Positions 11,162 to 51,500 of a DNA stretch of 64,000 nt are shown piece after piece (positions within the stretch are counted from its first letter, which is position 1; each line of letters opens with the position of its first letter). This DNA comes from a virus (lineage: Duplodnaviria > Caudoviricetes): positions 15,082 to 79,081 of the IMG/VR virus record IMGVR_UViG_3300031994_000067, one strand, 5' to 3'. The notes beneath the pieces are model-generated. The model ran no database searches. It saw only the letters and a program-made list of their open reading frames with translations, and was not told where the DNA came from. Both the position numbers and the translations under genes were made by a program.

Positions 11162-12451
11162 ATGGTTCAATTAGGTAATCACGCTATCTATGCCCCATCA
11201 ATGGCATATACTGTCGGAAATGTAGTGTTTAAGACAACCAATCTTGTAAAAAACCTGTTCGGGAAAAATTTCTTCAAGCATGTTCATATAGATACTAGAA
11301 TGGCATATACCGAATTTGCTATAAACTCAAATAAAGAATTCATTCACAAAAACAAACCTGTTCTCGGTATCAAGCCTGTGATAGAACTGTTAAACGATGA
11401 CATATTTCTGTCGGGTTCTTATCTTACAACCAATATGTTTCCTATGACCTTTGATAACATCGGTGGAGGTAATTTCAACTTTATACCATTTTTCGCCGAT
11501 AGAAAGAATGGTAACTCTGCCGGTTATCTATTAGACAGAATCAGAATTGGGTTTGGGATATTTATGAACTTCAATACGGTCGTTGAACAAATGAACATGT
11601 TTTCCATATTGACATCGATGTGGACTCAAGAAAAACAAATTCCGAGAAAGACTGCAATCGAGATTCATTTACCTAAACCGTTACTACAAATGATTTCCGT
11701 CGATAGTGGAGTTCCTATGAGGGACGAAAATGGTTCAGTTGAGAAATTCTTGGATTACATGAATAAGCATTGCAGTAGACCAATAACATATCAAATGAAA
11801 CCTTCGTCCGGTAACGATGAATTTTTCATGTATTATCCGTTGACTATCGAATATACTCCGACAGATTATTCGATGGATTCTGTTGAAAAAATTGGTCAAA
11901 CAATACATTCTGCACCAATCACATTCACACTTACAGCAGAATTTAACACGATTCAATTGTTTGACTATGCTCCACCGAGAGGAAAAGAAATGAATCTTGA
12001 TGCGTACGATATTTCGATTGAAGATAGAACGAATAATGGTTTGGGCAAATTCATGGTACCGATATGTACGTTCGACAATCTTTTTAACGAAAGAAACGAT
12101 GAAGGTTGGAGATTCTTTACTACCCGTATGTATAAAGTCGATCATGAACCGGGTCAAACGGAAGACAGGCTCGATCTGAAAGAGTTGTTTAAGAACACCA
12201 ATATCAAAGAAATCATCGAATACCACAATAAGTATGGAATCGATAATCACATCTTCTTCAATATACAGGTTTGGGGTTTGGACAAACAACTCAAAGAGGG
12301 CAGAGATTATGACTTCGATTTCAATACATTGACGTTGATTACAAAGAAACTTAATAAACGAATAACCTATAGATTCGTCATATACATTGACGACGGTTAT
12401 ATCAATGATTTAGTTGTTAAATTGCGTCCCGAAGAATTCACTTATAGATAA
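11162..12451 (+). CDS. Hypothetical protein, possibly virion structural
   Basis: 429-aa ORF with GGTGG RBS and TACA-N6-TA at 11135-11146. Confidence 0.6.
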   Translation: MVQLGNHAIYAPSMAYTVGNVVFKTTNLVKNLFGKNFFKHVHIDTRMAYTEFAINSNKEFIHKNKPVLGIKPVIELLNDDIFLSGSYLTTNMFPMTFDNIGGGNFNFIPFFADRKNGNSAGYLLDRIRIGFGIFMNFNTVVEQMNMFSILTSMWTQEKQIPRKTAIEIHLPKPLLQMISVDSGVPMRDENGSVEKFLDYMNKHCSRPITYQMKPSSGNDEFFMYYPLTIEYTPTDYSMDSVEKIGQTIHSAPITFTLTAEFNTIQLFDYAPPRGKEMNLDAYDISIEDRTNNGLGKFMVPICTFDNLFNERNDEGWRFFTTRMYKVDHEPGQTEDRLDLKELFKNTNIKEIIEYHNKYGIDNHIFFNIQVWGLDKQLKEGRDYDFDFNTLTLITKKLNKRITYRFVIYIDDGYINDLVVKLRPEEFTYR

Positions 12452-15045: not shown

Positions 15046-15441
15046 TCATTTTTTCTCATCTTCGGAATCATCTTTCGACTTATGAGCCGAATCCTTGGTG
15101 AGAGTTGTATGTAAATTCTTCAGACCAAGAAGCGTTTTCTTAAGTCCGTTTATTGTACATATTCGGCTGAATAACTCCCAGCCAATAACTCCGAGTATGA
15201 ATGTGATCGCTATCTCCAAATCATCGTTCAAATAACCTCTTGCCGCAAATATTAAAAAGGTGCTGAGAGTTGTTGATACAAAAATTCGTCTAATTTCGAT
15301 CTTAGGTCTTGTTCCAGAAACTGTATCGTATATATCTTTAACAAAAGCACCAATCATAGCTATCAAGAAATATGTTGCACCATCCAGAAAGAATATTGAA
15401 GATGTTTGGAGTTTGGCATACAATATTTCCATTAAATTCAC
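15046..15441 (-). CDS. Small membrane protein, holin-like
   Basis: Two to three hydrophobic segments and a charged C-terminal tail in 131 aa. Confidence 0.45.
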   Translation of the reverse strand: MNLMEILYAKLQTSSIFFLDGATYFLIAMIGAFVKDIYDTVSGTRPKIEIRRIFVSTTLSTFLIFAARGYLNDDLEIAITFILGVIGWELFSRICTINGLKKTLLGLKNLHTTLTKDSAHKSKDDSEDEKK

Positions 15442-40057: not shown

Positions 40058-40666
40058 TCAGTCTAAGTAATGTTTGCGTATATCGTCAAGTTTCGGTAAG
40101 ATGTCTTCGCAACAATTCTGTCTGGCAAATTCGGCAATCTTTCTATACTCTCTGTCGATATTTGATTGAGCCGTCTCTTTGGAACAGTTATTAACAATGA
40201 CATTGCGATATGAGAACAGCACAGTTCCGAGAAAATCGTGTAAGAGTTCCACAATTCGTATAACTTCGTGTTCACAGTGATCCCAGTTAGCAGTTTCATC
40301 AAACGGATAAAATGCGACGTGACTTTCAGCCATTTTCTCGAGAACGTCTTCCGCGAATTCCAGCTTAAAAGCCTCAAACAAATCATTGCCGTTAAGATAG
40401 GTAATCAATTTCGCACAGCGTTCTTTCTCATAACCGTTTTCTCTAAGAACGATATAGAGAGTTGACAGATTATAGATTCTATCATTTCTACTGAAATCTC
40501 CGATGAAGTCATACATGTGACGTGCAACCAACTCTTTGACATTAAAATCCTCGGCATGAAGCCGTTGATAAATGTTAAACACGGCATCGTTTATATCGAG
40601 CTGGTCAATCCGAGTTTTTTCTGCTTGTAACACATTAGCAAGTTCTTCAGTGTCCATCTTTATCAC
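40058..40666 (-). CDS. Hypothetical protein
   Basis: 202-aa ORF coupled to nrdG, with GGAGAG RBS. Confidence 0.6.
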
Positions 40667-41129
40667 TCTCCTTTCTTAAATCGATAATACGTTGATTAGA
40701 CGAACCTCTCCATTGAAGATTTAAGTCTCGCAATTCTAATATAAATGGTCCATCAACCAACACATCAATTTCTTTCAGAAGATTGTTAATAGCTGGGTCT
40801 TTCTTCGCTCGCAATTCTTCAAGAGTATATCCGGTATAACACCACACGGTTCCACCGAGCTTATGAACCCTGCGTGCTAAAATTAACATCGCTTTGGGCT
40901 GCTCCATCGGTTCACCGCCAGTAAGCGTTATACCGGACAACAACGGATTGCTGCGATACTCATGAAGTATAAAGTCTGTACCGGTAACAAAACCACCAGA
41001 CGCGTCCCATGTATGTTGATTGTGACATCCTTTGCAGTGATGAGAACATCCCTGCACAAACACGGCCAATCGGATCCCAGGTCCATCAACAAAACTCTCC
41101 TGAACTATACCGGCACAGCGAAAATTCAT
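40647..41129 (-). CDS. nrdG: Anaerobic ribonucleotide reductase activating enzyme (radical SAM)
   Basis: [17 protein letters not shown] (CxxxCxxC), [17 protein letters not shown]. Confidence 0.95.
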
Positions 41130-41845
41130 ATGAATTTCTCAGTCCTTTCAGGATTGTACCTATCCATGACAAATTTACGTTTGCCACAGTGCATTTTACC
41201 TTCCGGGCAGAATCCGCGATTGTTATAACAGTTCGGACCTACTCTGTTGAAAATAGACGGAAGAACTTCACGACACTTCTGAAGCATATGGTCAGCCAAT
41301 TCATGTATCTCATTCTGTGCACGATTGCAACACCGTAGCCCAAAAATATGGATAAGATTTCTGGCGTTGGTTGTCATGATAAGCTGACTCGTTGTGGCAT
41401 TCGGTAACAGATATCGAGCATCCTCTTTCGGAATATTGAACTCATCGATGAGACGCTTATAACACGCGGCGATTGTATCGAGAGCATATTCGAAAGTCAT
41501 CTTAGCTTCGGTATTGTCTCGGATCGATTCTGGAGCAACATAGTTGTTCAAAAGATCGTCCACCTCTACATATCGCTGACTACGCTGATGGAAAGTGCAA
41601 AGTCTGTGACGAACAAGCTGATGAGTAAGCGCACGAGACACGTCTTCAATCAAGAAAGTGAACGAAATGTGTTCAAGAATGGAATCGTGATGATTATCCA
41701 TTGCAACCTTAATCATTTTATCGATCGTTTCCTGATTAATTTTCTCGAGCATATCGCTGGCTTTATCCGATGTATAACATACTCTAGCCGCAGCAGCGAT
41801 AAGCTCTTCCGCATTTTCAGTATGACGGATCAATTCGACTTTCAT
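41126..41845 (-). CDS. thyX: Flavin-dependent thymidylate synthase
   Basis: [22 protein letters not shown] and ARYLLPNA motifs. Confidence 0.95.
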
Positions 41846-42873
41846 TCTTCATCATCCTCATCGGCTTCATCTTCGATGTACTCGGCAAAACAACTCGGTT
41901 CTATTTCGTTAAACACTGCGACTTTGTAAAGCTCGATGATTGCATCTGCAATACTGTCGTTATTATAACCGAAAGCTGAAACCGGCAAAAGAACAACACC
42001 GTTGTTGGAATGAAAATCGTAGTTTCTCGGAGTTAAGAACTCGCAAGCGCGATGGATGGCGTCCTTGTGTTCGAGGATATCGTCACCTTCGTGTTTAGTT
42101 TCTTTGCGTTTTTCAAGACGTTCAAGAATGTGATGTTCATCCAGAAGAAGCAAGAAATTATAAGGAAACGGAACGCCATTATCCATTTCATACTTATAAA
42201 TTCGCTCGTATTCATCGCGCATTTTGTTGTTGATAAACCGCTCTTTAAAATCACCAAACGGTTCATCATCATAACTCGGGTACATTCTCCACCAAATCTG
42301 TGTCAATTCATCACCGGCGCAATAATCATAAAAAGCATACAGCGCAGAGACATGGTGAATGATATTGCTGTAAGAGAAACGGTCAAACACATAAACCGTG
42401 TCAGGCTCAAGCTCTGCGGTTCTGAAATACTCAATCCGGTTTAACGCGTAGAGACTCATGACGAAACGGATGTCTTTAACAAGGCGTTCGAGACGACCCA
42501 TTGCGATAGAGACCCAATCAATCGCTGTTTCACCAGGAACCGAACTGAGAAATCTCGCATAATTCCCGTATTGACCGTTGAGATACGCTTTAATCATAGT
42601 GCCGGACGGAAGGTCGTATTGAGGGAAATCGACGCGTTTAACTTTGATACCGTCAACTCCCAAACCTTTCTTCTCAATGAGTTGAGTGATCGAACCCTTC
42701 CCCGTGCAATCAACGCCTTCAACCGCCAAGAAGCGATTATTATCATTGAACATGTCCTTTGTCAGAATAATGTCCGTCTCAGTATCCGGCTCATCATCCA
42801 AGGAATAGTGTCCGGGTTTCAACCAATTAACTTCACCTCTCCGGATTTTTTTGTTAGCGACTTGTAAAGCCAT
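41842..42873 (-). CDS. tmk: Thymidylate (dTMP) kinase
   Basis: AVEGVDCTGK P-loop, FPQY and DRFSYS motifs; adjacent to thyX. Confidence 0.85.
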   Translation of the reverse strand: MALQVANKKIRRGEVNWLKPGHYSLDDEPDTETDIILTKDMFNDNNRFLAVEGVDCTGKGSITQLIEKKGLGVDGIKVKRVDFPQYDLPSGTMIKAYLNGQYGNYARFLSSVPGETAIDWVSIAMGRLERLVKDIRFVMSLYALNRIEYFRTAELEPDTVYVFDRFSYSNIIHHVSALYAFYDYCAGDELTQIWWRMYPSYDDEPFGDFKERFINNKMRDEYERIYKYEMDNGVPFPYNFLLLLDEHHILERLEKRKETKHEGDDILEHKDAIHRACEFLTPRNYDFHSNNGVVLLPVSAFGYNNDSIADAIIELYKVAVFNEIEPSCFAEYIEDEADEDDEE

Positions 42874-42886
42874 TTAAGATTCCTCC

Positions 42887-43408
42887 TTAATTATCCTTAG
42901 CGCATTGAGCATAAAACAGGCGATAAAGTTCTCTCTCCTCATAGATAGCTTCAATGCGAGTTGTGGCGATGGATTCTGCAATGCGTCTTTCCGCCTCTTC
43001 ACCAACAAAAGTGCCTTTATACTTCTCGACAATCTTAAGAGCTTTCTTCAGACGTTTTTGTTCTTTTTCGTCTTCAGAAATTTCTGCGAGAGTTTTCAAA
43101 CACTCAATAGTATCAACGAACATTCTTTCATACCTCTCTTTCTCATAATCGAGTTGTTGAAGTTCCTCCGGTGTAAACAAATAACCGGTACGATGTTCGC
43201 ACAAACGAAAATCTTCATACAGACCCATCATATTCTTACGACACCGTTCGACTCGAAATAAATTGCAAAATTTCCACGTCTTCTTTTGAGCTAAATAAAG
43301 AGTGATGTCTTTACGTTTCGGTGAAACGCAAATGACATCGTCTTTATAGTACAGAATAAAGAAGACTTTCTTTCCTGTAAGACAATCCTCCATTGCGATA
43401 CACCTCAC
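42887..43408 (-). CDS. Early-type hypothetical protein
   Basis: 173-aa ORF with GAGG RBS and TATATATTAT at 43436-43445. Confidence 0.65.
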   Translation of the reverse strand: MRCIAMEDCLTGKKVFFILYYKDDVICVSPKRKDITLYLAQKKTWKFCNLFRVERCRKNMMGLYEDFRLCEHRTGYLFTPEELQQLDYEKERYERMFVDTIECLKTLAEISEDEKEQKRLKKALKIVEKYKGTFVGEEAERRIAESIATTRIEAIYEERELYRLFYAQCAKDN

Positions 43409-43469
43409 AAAATCTTCAGATTAGCATTCTGTGCTATAATATATAGACAAAAAACGAGTTAAAGGGGTG

Positions 43470-44470
43470 CGTTAGAAACTCAAAGAAGGTTTTCAATTAA
43501 GTTTCTAACTGCTACCCAAATGACCAAACCCTTGGCTGTCCGACTCCCTTGATTCGCGGAGGCTAACAATTCGAAAATTGCGCCGAACTATCTCAGATAT
43601 ACAAGTCCAATGCACTACATTGAACGAGTCAATACGGACGATTGCTGCCCGGATATGCTGGAATGCGTCTATATACCACTAGGCTCTCAGCGTTCCCCCA
43701 GCGATCAAATCTGGGTTAGGAGCCACAAACGTGCTTTGATGGAATAGACTTCACGGATACTTTTTTGCGTAAGCGAATTCATCATATGAACCCTCTGACC
43801 ATAGCGCGGTCCTGTCGTGTTCAAAGAACGCCAATTATGTTTGTATATCGTCTGGCGGGATTCCACGGAAGCTATCTGTCTGTCATTACAACAGGTTTAA
43901 GTCAGACCTCTTGGATAGGGCGGTACTCGGAATTATCACAACCCAATCGGCCACGCTACTCTACTGACACCGTTTCCATACTGAAGTTCGTTAGAATCAA
44001 TAATAAGAAAAATTCTTTAAACCAGTCGTGGGTGAAATTTTCACGCCTCCTCAACAAGTTGCGGCGAAATACCGACTTCAATCGCAAACCTTTAAACCTC
44101 CTCCATCTATAATAGAATTTCTCAGAGGAAAAAGTTCCTGTCTAAACCACTACATGACATTTTAAAACGTCCTGCGCGGTATATATGTCCATAGGTAATC
44201 TAGGAAAACGCCACCCTCACCCGTCACGTATTTTCCGACCGTATCCCTCTACCGGCTTCTTCTGAGCACTCAAGTTCTTTGCCGTTATTCCGCTGGTTAA
44301 TCAATGACTAGGCAGGGACTGTTATTAACCTTACACATAGTGTAAGTAAGTGAATGCCCAATCTGGAATAAACCAGATTTCTGATATATAGGTATAATTC
44401 CTCCGCAATCTCAATCATGTAACCTGACGCGAAGCGGGGTGTTTTAGCGTTAGCCATCAACCACATATAG
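43470..44470 (-). ncRNA. Candidate large structured non-coding RNA (~1 kb), family unassigned
   Basis: No credible ORF. Multiple hairpins, e.g. AATCTGG-N6-CCAGATT and CTTACAC-N3-GTGTAAG. Preceded by an upstream terminator and CACA-N6-TA (44477-44488), and closed by an inverted repeat at 43471-43509. Strand inferred from these signals. Confidence 0.5.
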
Positions 44471-44562
44471 TCGTGTTAATAGGTTGTGTTTCAAAATCGA
44501 AGAAAAAAAACGCGCCGTATATTTTGATAACGACGCTGATGAGGCAATGCCTCCTCTCTTAA

Positions 44563-44802
44563 TCAATATGCGCGACGATGTGTGTGACGACGTGTGCGAT
44601 TTGCGTAGCGATGTGCGCAGTATGCAACCACGCACTCCACCAGCACTCTCTGAGAGAGCGCGTTCGCCACATCTTCAAATACGACTTCTCCGCTTTTGTC
44701 GAGACCGACAACGACCGGTCGGCCATCGACACCGTATGATATGTCAGCGACAATTTCGTTGTCGCCGACAACGACGAGATATTCGTCTTCAAACTTCATC
44801 AT
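44563..44802 (-). CDS. Small early-type hypothetical protein
   Basis: MMKFEDEYLVVVG...; follows copy 1 of the 90-bp promoter/RBS repeat and is followed by a hairpin plus T-tract. Confidence 0.6.
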   Translation of the reverse strand: MMKFEDEYLVVVGDNEIVADISYGVDGRPVVVGLDKSGEVVFEDVANALSQRVLVECVVAYCAHRYANRTRRHTHRRAY

Positions 44803-44804
44803 TC

Positions 44805-44894
44805 TTATCTCCGTCCTTTCAAAACGGATCGTAGGTTTCTTCATATCAGTAGTGAGTAATCCTACTTAACTCTTCTACGCGGATATAATATATA
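44805..44894 (-). repeat. 90-bp direct repeat, copy 1 (early promoter + leader + RBS)
   Basis: Identical to 45355..45444; contains TATATATTAT and GGACGGAG. Confidence 0.92.
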
Positions 44895-45036
44895 AATATG
44901 GGAGAGGGTAATATCGGATTAAAAATCTCGTCCATACAATAAATTAGAGAAAAAAAGAACCCGCCCGTCAGACAACATGACGGTACCGGGCGCGAGATTG
45001 TTGCCGGTAGTTGCCCTAGGGCGGGGTGTGGGCATT

Positions 45037-45354: not shown

Positions 45355-45444
45355 TTATCTCCGTCCTTTCAAAACGGATCGTAGGTTTCTTCATATCAGT
45401 AGTGAGTAATCCTACTTAACTCTTCTACGCGGATATAATATATA
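45355..45444 (-). repeat. 90-bp direct repeat, copy 2
   Basis: Identical to 44805..44894. Confidence 0.92.
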
Positions 45445-45503: not shown

Positions 45504-48500
45504 TTAATAGAGATCGTCTTTAGGTTTGAAGCTTGGATTATCTTTTTGATACATCTCAAGCCACCTACGTTTTAATTCGACGATAACTTTATTTCCGTAC
45601 ATTGTGCAAAAGATTGATGGGGTCATACGTGCTAACACACCCGCTGGTGCGAAAGTTGACGAAATTTCTTCATCAGGTCTATCTATTGAATATGGTTCTT
45701 GTCCTTTTGCGATGAGCTCCAGTAATCTTCGCATAGGTTCGCTAATCCTATGCCGTTCTATTATGAACTGCTACATGTCTCCATGTAAGCTGAGACTATA
45801 TCATCATCTCATAGAGATGTCTCCCATTTCACTCCGCTTGGAGCTACGCCTTTCGGCTAGTCGTTGAACGTTCTAAAAAATCTCGATTCCTTCATCAATA
45901 TAGACAGTATTTTGTACAATAGAAAGATTGGTGTCAACTATTTTCTTCCTGGTTCTATACAATTTTTTCGCAACTTTTTTAGGAACACCTTTTTCAATAA
46001 GAGTTTTAACAATCTTCTTCTTAGACGTTCCACAAATAATTGCTCTGTCTATAGAGTTGAAATAAGTTCTATAAACCACAAACGAATTCGCAAATTTCAA
46101 ATTCAAACCTTCAGTAAGATATTTATAAACACTTTTTGACTTAATTTTTGATATGGTATCATTAGATACACCGGTTAAATCAGAAATTTCGCTCCGCGTA
46201 TAATCACCAGTTTCTAACAATTCGATCACTTTCTTTATATTGGCGATCTTATATTTGTTATTATGGTGATCTTCACCTTTAGGGAGAGATATGAGATTAT
46301 TATCATATGCGTGCTGAATATTCTCAGATTTTGTACACCATTCAAGATTTTCTAATCGGTTATCTGTTTTAATACCATTTTTATGATTAACATCAGGAAA
46401 ATTTTCGGGATTTGGTACAAACGCTTCCATAATCAATCTGTGAACAAATTTATGCACAGTTTTACGTTTGATATACATACTGTATCTCAAATACCCATGT
46501 TTACTTAAAAACGGTTTAAGAAAATGACCAGTTTTTAAGTTTTGTAATCTCCCATCTCTGTATATCATATAATTCGTGAGTTTGGAATTGACGTATACAA
46601 CTTTTCGATCGTCACTATCCACAAATATCACTTCTCTCATCAAAAAATTAAGAATGTGTTTAGTGGTTAATAGAAATGAGTCTTTAGTTTCGCTGCGGAT
46701 TGTCTCTATTCTCACTCTTTTTACCATACCTGAGTAGTTAATTCAGCCGCGTAATACATTACTGCTTACGTTTGGTAAATGAGACCTAACGAGATGTTCC
46801 CGCAATTAAGGAGATTCTAATATGTAGTCACCTACATATAGGGTCAGTATAGGCCGTTTACATACTTCCAAATATCTTCGCATAGGTTCGCTAATCCTAT
46901 GCCGTTCTCTTATGAACTGCTCTACGTCTCCGCAGAAGTTGAGACTATATCATCATCCATATAGGATGTCCCCCATTTCGCTCCGCTTGGAGCTACTCGC
47001 TTTCGCGATAGTCGTTGAACGTTCCTTCTATAAGAAGGCTTCGCTGCTGATTATCTTTATCTTACCGATTTTTACACTTGGTACGATAAGCATATCAAGA
47101 CTTCCCAGCAATTAAAGGAATTTTATCAATGTTGATTTCTCAACAAAGCCACTATTTGTGTTAATGGCTGTAAAATGGACCAATTTATCCAATAACTTCA
47201 CATAGGTTCGCTAATCCTATGCCGCTACTTAGCTGCTGCATGTCACCATGCAGATGAGACTATATCTTCACCTCAGAGAGGTGTCTCCCATTTCGCTCCG
47301 CTTGGAGCTACTCGCTTTCGCGATAGTCGTTGAACCTTCCTATTACAGGCTTGGCTGCTGATTGTCTCATAATGAGAGTTTCCAGCAATTAGAGAGATTC
47401 ATATCCGTGATCACTCACGGATCGGGCAATAAATTTACCTACATCAAGATAGTCCTTGTATTTGATGAAAAATTTAATCAGAACGCCAAGATGAACTTTA
47501 ACACCCATGATCTTTCCATCTTCTCCACCGTCAACAACCACAGCCTTTTCACTGAATTCCAGACCGTTGACATCTCCACCACGTCTCTTAATCTCAGCTT
47601 CCTGTGCTCTAAGTCTGGCAAAATAAGCATCGACGATCTTCTTCAAAGACGGAGAAAGTTCTTTAGGTTCGACGGTTGTGTATATTCGTATATCTTCAAT
47701 CACTCCAGCATACTTGGATTTAACCGGAATTTTACCCATAAGCGTGATTTCTTCTTTCAACTCTTTACCAATGTTAGCCAACATCTTGTTGAATGAAGCG
47801 TCCTGAGATGAATTATCGTATATAATCAGTGGGTCATTTACATTTACCTGCTGACCTATTTTGACGATGTAATCAACATTCGAGTTCATTCCAACTATAG
47901 CTTCTGCTTCCATACATACTTCAGTTCCTAACTTCTTCGAAAGTTTATCCGTAACGAAATTACCATCTTCGAAGCTGGTATATGTAGCCATGCAAGCCAC
48001 TTTAGTAAGAGTTCCTATGTTGAATCGTACACCTTCAGCCGGAGAACTCGAAAAGTATCTTTCGTTATATGCAAGAACAGAATTTTTCTTAAAATAAGTT
48101 CCCGGTTTAAGTGCGTCTGTATTCATCTTACTGGGCAGGTAAAACCCACCTGCTCCATTTTTGACGACTTTTGAATTAGCGTTAATAACTTGACGTTTCA
48201 ATTTTCCTTGGAGATTCTTATATTCGATTACAATAACCCCGGTCTTATCGTCTCGTGAAATTACCTTACCATCATCTTTCGCTACTATACAGAAATCAGT
48301 AGAAAGATGATAAGGTAAAACTTTTTCAGCACCATTTGATATTAGTACCGGAGACGCATGTTCTACGGGGATGATGTGCTTGCTTTGTTTGACAGCCATT
48401 GAGACACGAATCTGATCATCCCGATTCAATCCTGGGGTAAGCATTTCAGCCATACTAAAAATATTAGAATCATCCAAATCTCGTTCATCCGAAGGTTTTA

Positions 48501-51500
48501 CATACCCACGACCATTGACCACGTTCGGGTTTATAGTCAAACTTTTGGTGATGCCGACATTAGCATCTGGAGATTGCGGAATTGCTATAACTCCAACCAT
48601 GCTCTTGTCGTAACATCTACGTTTCAATGTGTAGGCCTCTTTCAAATTTGTCCCGCTGGGTGTTGTGTTCACATAGGTTCGCTAATCCTATATCGCTCTT
48701 TTAAGAGCTGCTGTGAGTCCCCCCACAGACCAGACTATATCTTCACCTCTATGAGGTGTTCCCTGTTTCGCTCCGCTTGGAGCTACTCACTTTCGTGATA
48801 GTCGTTGAACCTTCCTTCTAATATAGAAGGCTTGGCTGCTGATTGTCTCTATTCTACCGATTGTTACACTTTGGTACGGTAGACCTAACGAGAGTTTCCA
48901 GCAATTAAGGGAATTTTTGTTATATGATTACTCATATAAAGAGCCTCAGTTAACCCTTGTCGGTCAAAAGATGACTTTTCTCAACCTCTACAATAGGACT
49001 GAGTTCAGAAACATCTTCAACAACTTGTGACTGCATTATATCTTTGATAATCGTTCCTTGTGGAATCGAAATCTTCGTCGGATTCTTATTTCCCGAGGTC
49101 ATTCTGTATTTACCGTATGCCTCAGAGATCGCTTTAAACGCATATGCATAAGCCATTTCATTACTACGGATTCTATAGTTTCTCATATCGAGTTCGCTGA
49201 TGTAACTATTATCAGCAAGCAATTTATTTCCTGCTAATAACAACCCCACAAAATCAGTAGGATAATTCAAATCCTCTAGTATCTGAAGAGTTACTGGGTC
49301 AATCATCCAATCATAAAAGTTATCAAGAGCGTTAGCTAACATCCTGGTACCAAACAGTACATCGAATAAGCTAACGTATACATCCTTCGCGTCCATCTCG
49401 GCATACTCAAATCCGCGAGTATCAACCATTCCAAATCCGTTCATCAATAACGAAACTTCTAACGGGAATTTGTCATATACAAGATAACCATCTGAGAATG
49501 GTATAACTCCCTTGTTGACAGCTTCCATTTCTCTAAGACGCGGTCTTGTATCTGAAAATTGGAATTTGACTTCAGCTTTACGTAATACAGTGGTTAAACC
49601 CTCGCAATAAGATAAAAGTAATACAAGTGGAATATCTTTCTTCATTATCTTACAGCGAGTGTACATGAACCGTCTTCCGGATTTAATATCTGCGAATTTC
49701 TGTATATCGATTGAATCTCCAAGATATTGGATAACGTGATCACAAATTCCCATTATTGGTGTAGAATCAACGTTTTCATCTTTGATTACTTCGGGGGTTT
49801 CGACGGATTCTTTGGAAGCAATAAATCGGGAGAGATTAGATCCAATTTCTCCAGATTTTTTTCGAATTGTATTAACGAATCTTTCAAACGGTGTATAAGT
49901 AAGAACTTTACCATCTTCGGAGAATATACACCCTTCAGACTTTTTGATTATCTCAATTTGAGTGAGTCGTTTATCACCATACAGTTTATCGATGAACTCC
50001 AAGTCTGCATCCGTAAAATATCCGTTTCGAATAATTAGTCGTCTTTCATCTTTTTTTCTAGACACGAGATTCATTCCATAAATTTGTCGATTACCTAGCA
50101 TTATCATATAGAAGAAATCACGCATTCTTTTAGTATATTTATCAGCCGCCTGTTCATATGTGAGAAAAGGACCTGAAGTATCGTTAAATATACCTCCATA
50201 GCTGAATATATAAACTCCGGACTTACGACGAACCATTGTTACAAAGTGTGAGACACATTGCATAGTTGCAGATGAACCGTTCTCTACATTAAAGAATCGA
50301 GCAAATCTGTAGATTCTAGCAGGGATGTTATTTCGTTTAAAGAAATAATATGCAAATATTGCTTGGTCAAAACAATTTCCGATTTTTTCTCGTAAAATAT
50401 CTTCTGGCCAATGAACTTCACCTAACCATTGTACTGGTCCATAATTGTTGCGTTCTTTGTATTCCGGCCACTTGATGTGATTAGCTTGAAACCAGGTGAC
50501 CAAATCTTCGAAAGTCTTAAATTGTTTGCAGAAATCATCAAGAGTTTTGTATTTCTTAGTATAAACAGAAATCTTGTAATCTTCTTGAACTGGTTCCAAT
50601 TCTCCTGATTTTATCAACTCCAGAGCTTCCTTCGCAACCTTCTTTTCTTTCGGAGTCTGGTATTGCTTAGACCAAGCAAGCAACTTGTAAAAAACTCCGG
50701 TAATCTTAGGAATTCTGATAAATCTAAAATCTCTAGAGAAGAAGTGAGTAGACCAAAGATTGTCTCCACCATCCGCATACAAGTAATCTTTCTGGACGAT
50801 GTCTTTATTCAGATACTTGTCGAGATGTTCGGTTTCGGAGTATTCTTGCACTGACCATTCTGTACTATCTGAGACTGGAGCGTCAAATCCTTTATTTGGA
50901 CTTGATAACAGTAATACTTTGTAGAATTCGGTAACTTGTCCAGCTGCATCATACCAACTTTTGTACGGTCCAGTGATAATTCCATGACCAGGTCCGATGT
51001 AAAGCCAAGCATAAACATATTTTCCACGTTTAAACAACGGGAATATATGACCAGCTGAGGTTCCGTTTTCGAGTCGTATGGTGAACAGCGCCATACGATG
51101 TTCAATATGCCGTTTCTTGAAAAAGAAGTGCATCATGACAGACTGGTCGAGACAATTCCCTTTACGTTCTTTAACCAGTGTGTCAGGCCATCTCATTTTA
51201 TCATTATTGGCTTTATCGTTCCAAACGACCTTGTTGGCTATAAACCAATTCATCGCATCTTCTGGGGTTTTACATTCGTCACAAAATTCCTTAAAGTTTT
51301 TAGCCTTAGAAGATTTGAATTGTTTAGCCGATTCTTCTATCACTTCCAACATTTCCTTGACTTTTGTAGGAGGCGGTTCCGTCAAGAAACAACACCAATG
51401 AAGTTTACCAGATTCATCAAGTTCCATTTCCTCGTAAAAGTTTTCGATACCTTTCTCTGTTTCTTTGATGATAGTTCGTTCATATGGTTCAAAATCGGTT

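Follow-up and report, generated by a model that had tools for sequence, protein, structure and literature searches.

A one-kilobase gap without open reading frames in a putative AR9/PBS1-like jumbo phage as the probable gene of a large structured non-coding RNA

Introduction

What does a phage gain from more than one kilobase of DNA that encodes no credible protein in an otherwise gene-dense genome? The question is raised by positions 43409-44562 of a stretch of 64,000 nucleotides, referred to here as the window, which corresponds to positions 15,082 to 79,081 of the viral record IMGVR_UViG_3300031994_000067, a 79-kb IMG/VR contig with a CheckV completeness of 32%. An earlier note, made from the letters of the window, had proposed that the region is the gene of a giant non-coding RNA, late-expressed from the minus strand and either belonging to a class such as GOLLD or ROOL or representing a new one. 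The analysis described here indicates that the gap probably harbours an independent gene whose product is a structured non-coding RNA of about 1.03 kb, expressed late from the minus strand and without a described family. The carriers of this RNA unit are most likely an uncultured clade of AR9/PBS1-like giant (jumbo) phages. To our knowledge, large structured RNAs lacking an assigned function are rare and have mostly been found in bacteria or prophages.

Coding potential and composition of the gap

The gap measures 1154 nt, more than any other non-coding stretch of this contig, whose median gap is 68 nt. It is delimited by two genes:

42887-43393, minus strand: gene of a 168-aa protein, the only gene that neighbours the RNA unit throughout the family described below
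44563-44844, minus strand: upstream orphan gene of 93 aa, not conserved in the close relative L003

The longest open reading frames (ORFs) inside the gap encode 36-53 aa on the minus strand and 115 aa, from a TTG codon, on the plus strand, and a PHROGs scan of the 115-aa ORF gave no match. A codon-usage log-odds score, for which 44 long ORFs of the contig served as training set, was negative in all six frames between about 43400 and 44500 (-0.07 to -0.47 bits/codon), while real genes score +0.27 +/- 0.11. The GC content of the unit 43449-44466 is 0.439, compared with 0.390 in coding and 0.383 in other intergenic DNA. The earlier note had asserted both that about 1 kb lacks a credible ORF and that the region is richer in GC than other intergenic DNA, and both statements hold. 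No iterons or tandem repeats are present in the gap, and no tRNA or tmRNA gene was detected by ARAGORN.

A reading in which the gap encodes one or more small proteins could be built on a GTG ORF of 53 codons (43705-43866, minus strand), which is open with the same length at the same place in the window and in L003. This ORF is not preceded by a Shine-Dalgarno (SD) sequence and has a negative codon score, two compensating 1-nt indels rewrite 14 of its internal residues, substitutions lack 3-base periodicity, and the blocks within which it lies show conservation at all codon positions. It was rejected, and small proteins appear extremely improbable as the content of the gap. A leaderless ORF from the second of the predicted transcription starts was rejected as well: it is open for 52 codons in the window and meets a stop after 18 in L003. 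Conserved small ORFs, the explanation that the earlier note had set against its own proposal, do not account for the region.

Conservation in close relatives

Relatives of the 168-aa protein with 91%, 71% and 67% identity were found on Logan contigs. In L003, the 71% relative, an ORF-free gap of 1149 nt occupies the same place and aligns with that of the window over its entire length. The two gaps are 74.9% identical, gaps counted, versus 66.3% for the two adjacent protein genes. Seven identical blocks of 25-66 nt are split by short variable segments bearing indels, which are mostly not multiples of 3, and the mismatches are distributed among the three phases as 50/60/65, with no 3-base periodicity. 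The upstream position is taken in L003 by a different gene, a 111-aa ORF without relation to the 93-aa one, whose early promoter and leader (52 nt) match those of the window at 96% identity. Taking into account that: (i) the gap is more conserved than the genes; (ii) its mismatches are not periodic, and (iii) the upstream gene has been swapped, purifying selection acts on the nucleotide sequence of the gap. Two of the blocks deserve a separate mention:

43601-43666, minus strand: longest block identical in L003, 66 nt, inside a 3′ extension of about 200 nt present only in the window and L003
44158-44209, minus strand: block of 52 nt identical in L003, containing GACAUAUAUACCG and a hairpin on the palindrome GACGUUUUAAAAUGUC

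The invariant near-palindrome GACGUUUUAAAAUGUC covers positions 44156-44172 of the minus strand. It could fold as a hairpin with a self-complementary UUAA loop or pair as an intermolecular duplex, and might serve as a dimerisation site.

Other databases added no relative of the region itself. It had no blastn match among 50,697 phage records, exact and degenerate sequence patterns retrieved no genuine match from IMG/VR (18-mer and 15-mer matches were chance ones as judged by blastn), and pattern scans of JGI metagenomes and GTDB genomes revealed no relative. Searches with the flanking proteins in IMG/VR and JGI metagenomes returned only the query itself, and tblastn of the family proteins against cultured phages gave no match.

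Boundaries of the predicted transcription unit

The ends of the putative RNA can be proposed from the following elements, given in the order of transcription:

44503-44545, minus strand: end of the upstream gene, resembling a terminator, with short GC hairpins and then a T8 run at 44510-44503
44488-44476, minus strand: late-promoter-like CACA-N6-TAA, predicted start A at 44477, conserved in L003
44477-44466, minus strand: second late-promoter-like motif, AACA-N6-TA, overlapping the first, alternative start A at 44466, conserved in L003
43449-44477, minus strand: predicted non-coding RNA of 1029 nt, shortened to 1018 nt if the second start is used
43465-43517, minus strand: terminal hairpin of 20 bp, with inverted-repeat arms 43471-43483 and 43497-43509 inside it
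43449-43454, minus strand: U6 run, predicted 3′ end, 10 nt past the hairpin
43445-43429, minus strand: early promoter of the next gene, AR9-type TATATATTAT-N6-G, ahead of the 168-aa gene
43433-43421, minus strand: CACA-N6-TAA of the next gene, overlapping the early motif

The T8 end divides the upstream gene from the RNA unit, and T-runs occupy the same place in L003 and L053. On the other side, the tail UAAC..UUUUUU is also found in L003, L002, L053 and L056. Two features reported in the earlier note, a beginning just after a terminator plus CACA-N6-TA and an inverted repeat at the far end, are both recovered here, the repeat forming part of the terminal hairpin.

The first of the two start motifs has a clear meaning elsewhere in the contig. 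CACA-N6-TAA occurs 13 times in the 79 kb, and behind 12 of these copies an ORF of 50 or more codons, equipped with SD sequence and start codon, follows within 60 nt, an association with gene starts for which control tetramers gave nothing comparable in the contig scan. The single copy with no SD sequence and ORF behind it is the one ahead of the ORF-free unit. Examples of the motif are:

window 907, 5615, 9536, 32285, 37319, 38728, 43433, 56645 and 60697: CACA-N6-TAA, preceded by a T-rich stretch

In phage AR9 the late promoter consensus is AACA-N6-TA/G, the last base being the start site (PMC5312081). CACA-N6-TAA predicts gene starts almost perfectly and looks like this phage's own version of the AR9 late promoter. 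The gene-start-linked late motif of the contig can be written as NACA-N6-TA, and at the 5′ end of the unit motifs of this type are found with their last A as the predicted start site, which places it by sequence among AR9-type late units. Late expression of the unit is suggested by this promoter motif alone. Variants beginning with GACA and TACA are likewise found ahead of genes.

Secondary structure and covariation

Folding of the window and L003 with RNAalifold gave a consensus of 250 pairs. Both partners differ between the two sequences in 22 of these pairs and one partner in 15, and no pair is disrupted. As control, 25 column shuffles that preserve the gap and conservation pattern were used. 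The energy of the consensus corresponds to z = -3.9 against the shuffles, and the 22 doubly compensated pairs exceed what the shuffles produce (9.5 on average, 13 at most). For the antisense strand z was -3.3, with a fold weaker by 40 kcal/mol. A coding control, equal in length, gave z = -2.2, with 20 compensated pairs versus 19.7 and hence no excess. The terminal hairpin, compared in the window, L003 and L002, contains 3 doubly compensated pairs and 4 A-U/G-U changes. Because such exchanges are A-C mismatches on the other strand, they fit only a transcript of the minus strand, the strand to which the earlier note had assigned the unit.

The same changes bear on the notion that the gap works as DNA, for example in the initiation of replication, in packaging or as a hotspot of recombination. 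Its position among replication and nucleotide-metabolism genes would suit such a role, as would the fact that the assemblies of four relatives break in or beside the unit. Helix changes of the G-U type are compatible with transcription of one strand only, the unit is bracketed by a promoter motif and by a hairpin with U-run, iterons and tandem repeats are absent, and the unit is richer in GC than its surroundings instead of being rich in AT. A DNA-level element is consequently improbable, and a replication origin in particular was rejected for its lack of iterons and of an AT-rich composition. The four assemblies that end within or beside the unit or its equivalent (L002, L005, L006 and L008) come from different runs, and the breaks may reflect strain-level variability or a coverage anomaly.

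Deeper lineages and family motifs

An exhaustive HMMER search recovered homologues of the 168-aa protein at 25-34% identity. Every relative, close or deep, came from the Logan and ENA assemblies, which were reached by way of protein sequences. Directly upstream of the gene and on the same strand, most of the homologue contigs retrieved carry ORF-free gaps, which represent three or four deeper lineages:

L037: ORF-free gap of 686 nt upstream of the 168-aa homologue
L039-42: ORF-free gap of 763 nt upstream of the 168-aa homologue
L043: ORF-free gap of 814 nt, truncated where the contig ends, upstream of the 168-aa homologue
L053/54: ORF-free gap of 537 nt upstream of the 168-aa homologue
L056: ORF-free gap of 578 nt upstream of the 168-aa homologue

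The RNA unit itself spans 0.4-0.75 kb in these deep relatives, and the version of the window, of about 1.0 kb, is the largest. With the exception of L043 the layout is common: NACA-N6-TA, GGUUGA, a structured body, a hairpin terminator, TATATATTAT and the gene. The contig of L043 begins inside the gap; it has no promoter motif, a looser GUUUGA and only a looser 3′ element. Two motifs of the layout could be located in the window:

44457-44462, minus strand: 5′ family motif GGUUGA, which pairs with a downstream YAUACC in the short relatives
43679-43726, minus strand: 3′ family element, an inner hairpin CCCAG/CUGGG enclosed by the outer stem GGCUC/GAGCC

GGUUGA lies 4-6 nt past the predicted start, or 22 nt in L039-42; in the window the alternative start 44466 precedes it by 4 nt, a spacing that is the same in L037, L053 and L056. 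In L053, L056 and L037 the GGUUG strand pairs with YAUACC about 100 nt downstream, closing a 5′ domain. Both strands are present in the window, where they are 270 nt apart, and we propose that GACAUAUAUACCG of the 52-nt block would be the 3′ strand of the helix with GGUUG.

The 3′ element, written as GTGGCTY-N5-40-RRGCCTAG, is found in three of the deeper lineages, in the gaps of L037, L039-42 and L053/54/56, as well as in the window and L003. The collected contig DNA, 517 kb x 2 strands, contains no further copy. Its outer stem is kept, whereas the inner hairpin covaries (CCCAG/CUGGG, CCGAGAC/GUCUUGG, ACCG/CGGU) and is shrunk to a loop in the 0.4-kb forms. Directly past the element in the window, GGUAUAUA (43677-43670) is complementary to UAUAUACC in the 52-nt block. 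Both motifs, in this order and within an ORF-free unit upstream of the 168-aa gene, occur in the window, L003, L037, L039-42, L053/54 and L056.

Several observations weigh against an RNA gene shared by all these phages. Between the deep lineages nhmmer found nothing at E<=1, the best pairwise values being about 0.05-0.2, and a covariance model of the L053/L056 3′ core (R1) had no match at the expected places. Since profile and covariance searches fail to link the deep lineages, homology across the family rests on synteny and on short motifs that were picked after viewing the sequences. Among close relatives there is one full-length homologue (L003), so covariation is read from 2-3 close sequences. 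In a stricter test, when the minimum free energy (MFE) structure obtained from the window RNA alone was imposed on L003, 35 of 74 changed pairs were kept, near the value of slid controls, although 12 pairs changed on both sides as against 4-8 in those controls. Given the excess in the RNAalifold consensus but the weak transfer of the MFE structure, local helices are supported and the global fold is not established. The unit is also absent at the equivalent spot in the 67% relative (L005-8), and in the P0017 lineage a protein gene of 185-226 aa stands there. Absence in the one and replacement in the other imply that the unit is dispensable or replaceable. Finally, no examined evidence indicates one specific function.

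Absence from L005-8 and the gene of P0017, together with a neighbourhood rich in group I introns and holding an HNH endonuclease, might rather be expected of decaying or selfish DNA: an eroded protein gene, a homing-endonuclease cassette or an intron without present function. Such DNA would hardly be conserved above its flanking genes, with identical blocks of up to 66 nt and compensatory changes in excess; moreover, no intron model matches and the PHROGs scan of the 115-aa plus-strand ORF was empty. Decay is therefore very improbable, and a gene for a structured RNA is the reading that we retain.

Search for known RNA classes

If the gap is an RNA gene, does it belong to a class already described? 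Rfam cmscan was run, as the earlier note had advised for GOLLD, ROOL, OLE, RNase P and tmRNA, on the whole window at gathering thresholds and on 43200-44900 at E<=10, and it found no match in the gap. The same search at E<=1 in L003, L037, L042 and L043 gave no match in the ORF-free units. GOLLD, ROOL, OLE, raiA and HEARO are ruled out as far as the Rfam covariance models tell. Group II introns, RNase P RNA, tmRNA, 6S and SRP RNA had no Rfam match, the ARAGORN result for tmRNA and tRNA being negative too. Matches to Intron_gpI are confined to 46920-48962, with none in 43200-44900 at E<=10, in agreement with the statement of the earlier note that the gap lacks the group I core. Of the two branches that the note had left for the RNA, membership of GOLLD or ROOL finds no covariance-model match in the window or its relatives. 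The other, a new class, is well supported by the lack of coding signal, the conservation above the flanks, the compensatory excess, the strand-specific G-U changes of the terminal hairpin, the promoter motif shared with 12 genes and the syntenic units with common motifs in deep relatives.

The neighbouring protein and the possible role of the RNA

The 168-aa protein has no match in Pfam or PHROGs. Its AlphaFold 2 (AF2) model, with a predicted local distance difference test (pLDDT) score of 91, consists of an N-terminal alpha/beta part and a four-helix C-terminal part. Foldseek found nothing in the PDB at E<=0.001 for this model, and VIA-align gave generic helical-hairpin matches only (Z<=7.4). 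By its constant position, the protein would be the obvious candidate partner of the RNA.

The same constancy could be explained if the RNA were not independent but a giant structured 5′ region, driven by the late promoter, in which regulated read-through of the terminal hairpin controls how the downstream operon of the 168-aa protein and nucleotide metabolism is expressed late in infection. The unit is always directly upstream of the gene and on its strand, across lineages whose proteins share 25-34% identity, and the U-run, separated from the stem by 10 nt, departs from the textbook form of an intrinsic terminator. Set against this, the 168-aa gene has early and late promoter motifs of its own between the hairpin and the start codon, relatives retain the gene without the unit, and 0.4-1.0 kb is far longer than known leaders. 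We regard a cis-acting leader as unlikely.

For the stand-alone RNA we propose the following model. The non-virion (late) RNA polymerase of the phage would transcribe the unit from CACA-N6-TAA/AACA-N6-TA, starting at 44477 or 44466, and transcription would stop at the long hairpin and U-run (43517-43449). The RNA of the family would comprise a 5′ domain, closed by GGUUG/YAUACC, and the 3′ hairpin GUGGCUY...RAGCCUAG. Lineage-specific domains, placed between or after these two shared elements, would extend it from about 0.4 to 1.0 kb. Such a build, a conserved core to which each lineage adds expansion domains, is that of architectural or catalytic RNAs. By analogy with ROOL and GOLLD, the likeliest mode, which we put forward tentatively, is that of a late architectural RNA that acts in trans through its fold, in an assembly of RNA only or of RNA and protein. 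A decoy against host defence and a ribozyme are modes to which we give less weight than to a trans-acting scaffold.

More speculatively, the units may constitute a new modular family of giant RNAs (0.4-1.0 kb) of AR9-like jumbo phages, co-inherited across very deep divergence with the novel-fold 168-aa protein and forming with it a late ribonucleoprotein or RNA cage. If this were true, the cage could take part, for example, in genome packaging, virion assembly or neutralisation of host defence, and would represent a new functional class and not a relative of ROOL or GOLLD. The RNA would be among the largest of its kind, and it is carried by a lytic jumbo phage equipped with RNA polymerases of its own. 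The system offers several handles: the readable promoter class predicts the timing and the enzyme of RNA synthesis, the natural size variants of 0.4-1.0 kb delimit a minimal core, and the constant protein neighbour supplies a first hypothesis on a partner. Confirmation would enlarge by one family the small set of giant RNAs fit for cryo-electron microscopy (cryo-EM), and would mean that AR9-like phages devote late transcription to a non-coding product.

The phage and its genomic surroundings

The phage is most likely an uncultured AR9/PBS1-like jumbo phage. A fragment of the beta subunit of a multisubunit RNA polymerase encoded in the contig shares 35% identity with its counterparts in Staphylococcus jumbo phages and in PBS1/AR9. 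The region of its C-terminus is interrupted by three group I introns (46920-48962, minus strand; Rfam, 96-101 bits), and an HNH endonuclease ORF (45873-46727) adjoins this intron-bearing region, the whole extending over 45873-48962 of the minus strand. A group I intron is also carried by L003, at its positions 11700-11956.

The early promoters point in the same direction. TATATTAT is present at 16 sites of the contig, mostly intergenic, and agrees with the AR9 early consensus, AAATATATATTAT-N6-G (PMC5312081). An identical early promoter and leader of 35 nt, made of TATATATTAT and then the same 25 nt, exists in two copies on the minus strand (44850-44894 and 45400-45444), each heading a different small orphan gene. 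The leader recurs at 96% identity in L003, ahead of the 111-aa gene. It looks like a promoter cassette that accepts exchanged cargo genes.

On the other side of the 168-aa gene, a cluster for nucleotide metabolism occupies 40647-42873 (minus strand). One of its genes is anaerobic ribonucleotide reductase small-subunit/radical-SAM-like, another is thymidylate-kinase-like, and a ThyX-type thymidylate synthase (Thy1) is encoded as well. For a phage related to AR9 and PBS1, which have uracil DNA, such a cluster is of note and may bear on the base usage of the genome.

Comparison with known systems

The use of RNA as a structural component has a precedent among Bacillota phages in the packaging RNA (pRNA) of phi29, a molecule of about 170 nt that acts in trans within the virion-assembly machine. 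It is far shorter than the RNA discussed here, and we know of no relation in sequence or structure between the two, which were compared via Rfam only.

With the late units of AR9, the unit shares the grammar of early and late promoters, differing in the preferred first base of the late motif, which here is C (CACA). In AR9, late promoters lie ahead of protein genes and one tRNA gene, and no large non-coding late transcript was reported (PMC5312081).

The nearest counterparts in form are ROOL and GOLLD, large 'ornate' RNAs of phages and prophages that cryo-EM has revealed as RNA-only multimers (bioRxiv 10.1101/2024.12.08.627333 / PMC12286853). Unlike them, the present unit matches no Rfam model, has no tRNA genes nearby, is tied to one conserved protein gene and appears to depend on a late promoter of AR9 type, which would be used by a multisubunit RNA polymerase that the phage encodes. 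Judging from contig and sample names, several of its relatives presumably derive from gut or rumen metagenome studies, the setting that yielded the first ROOL RNAs. Like ROOL and GOLLD, it is a phage-borne, protein-free gene of 0.4-1 kb, with many helices, long invariant stretches and lineage-specific expansions.
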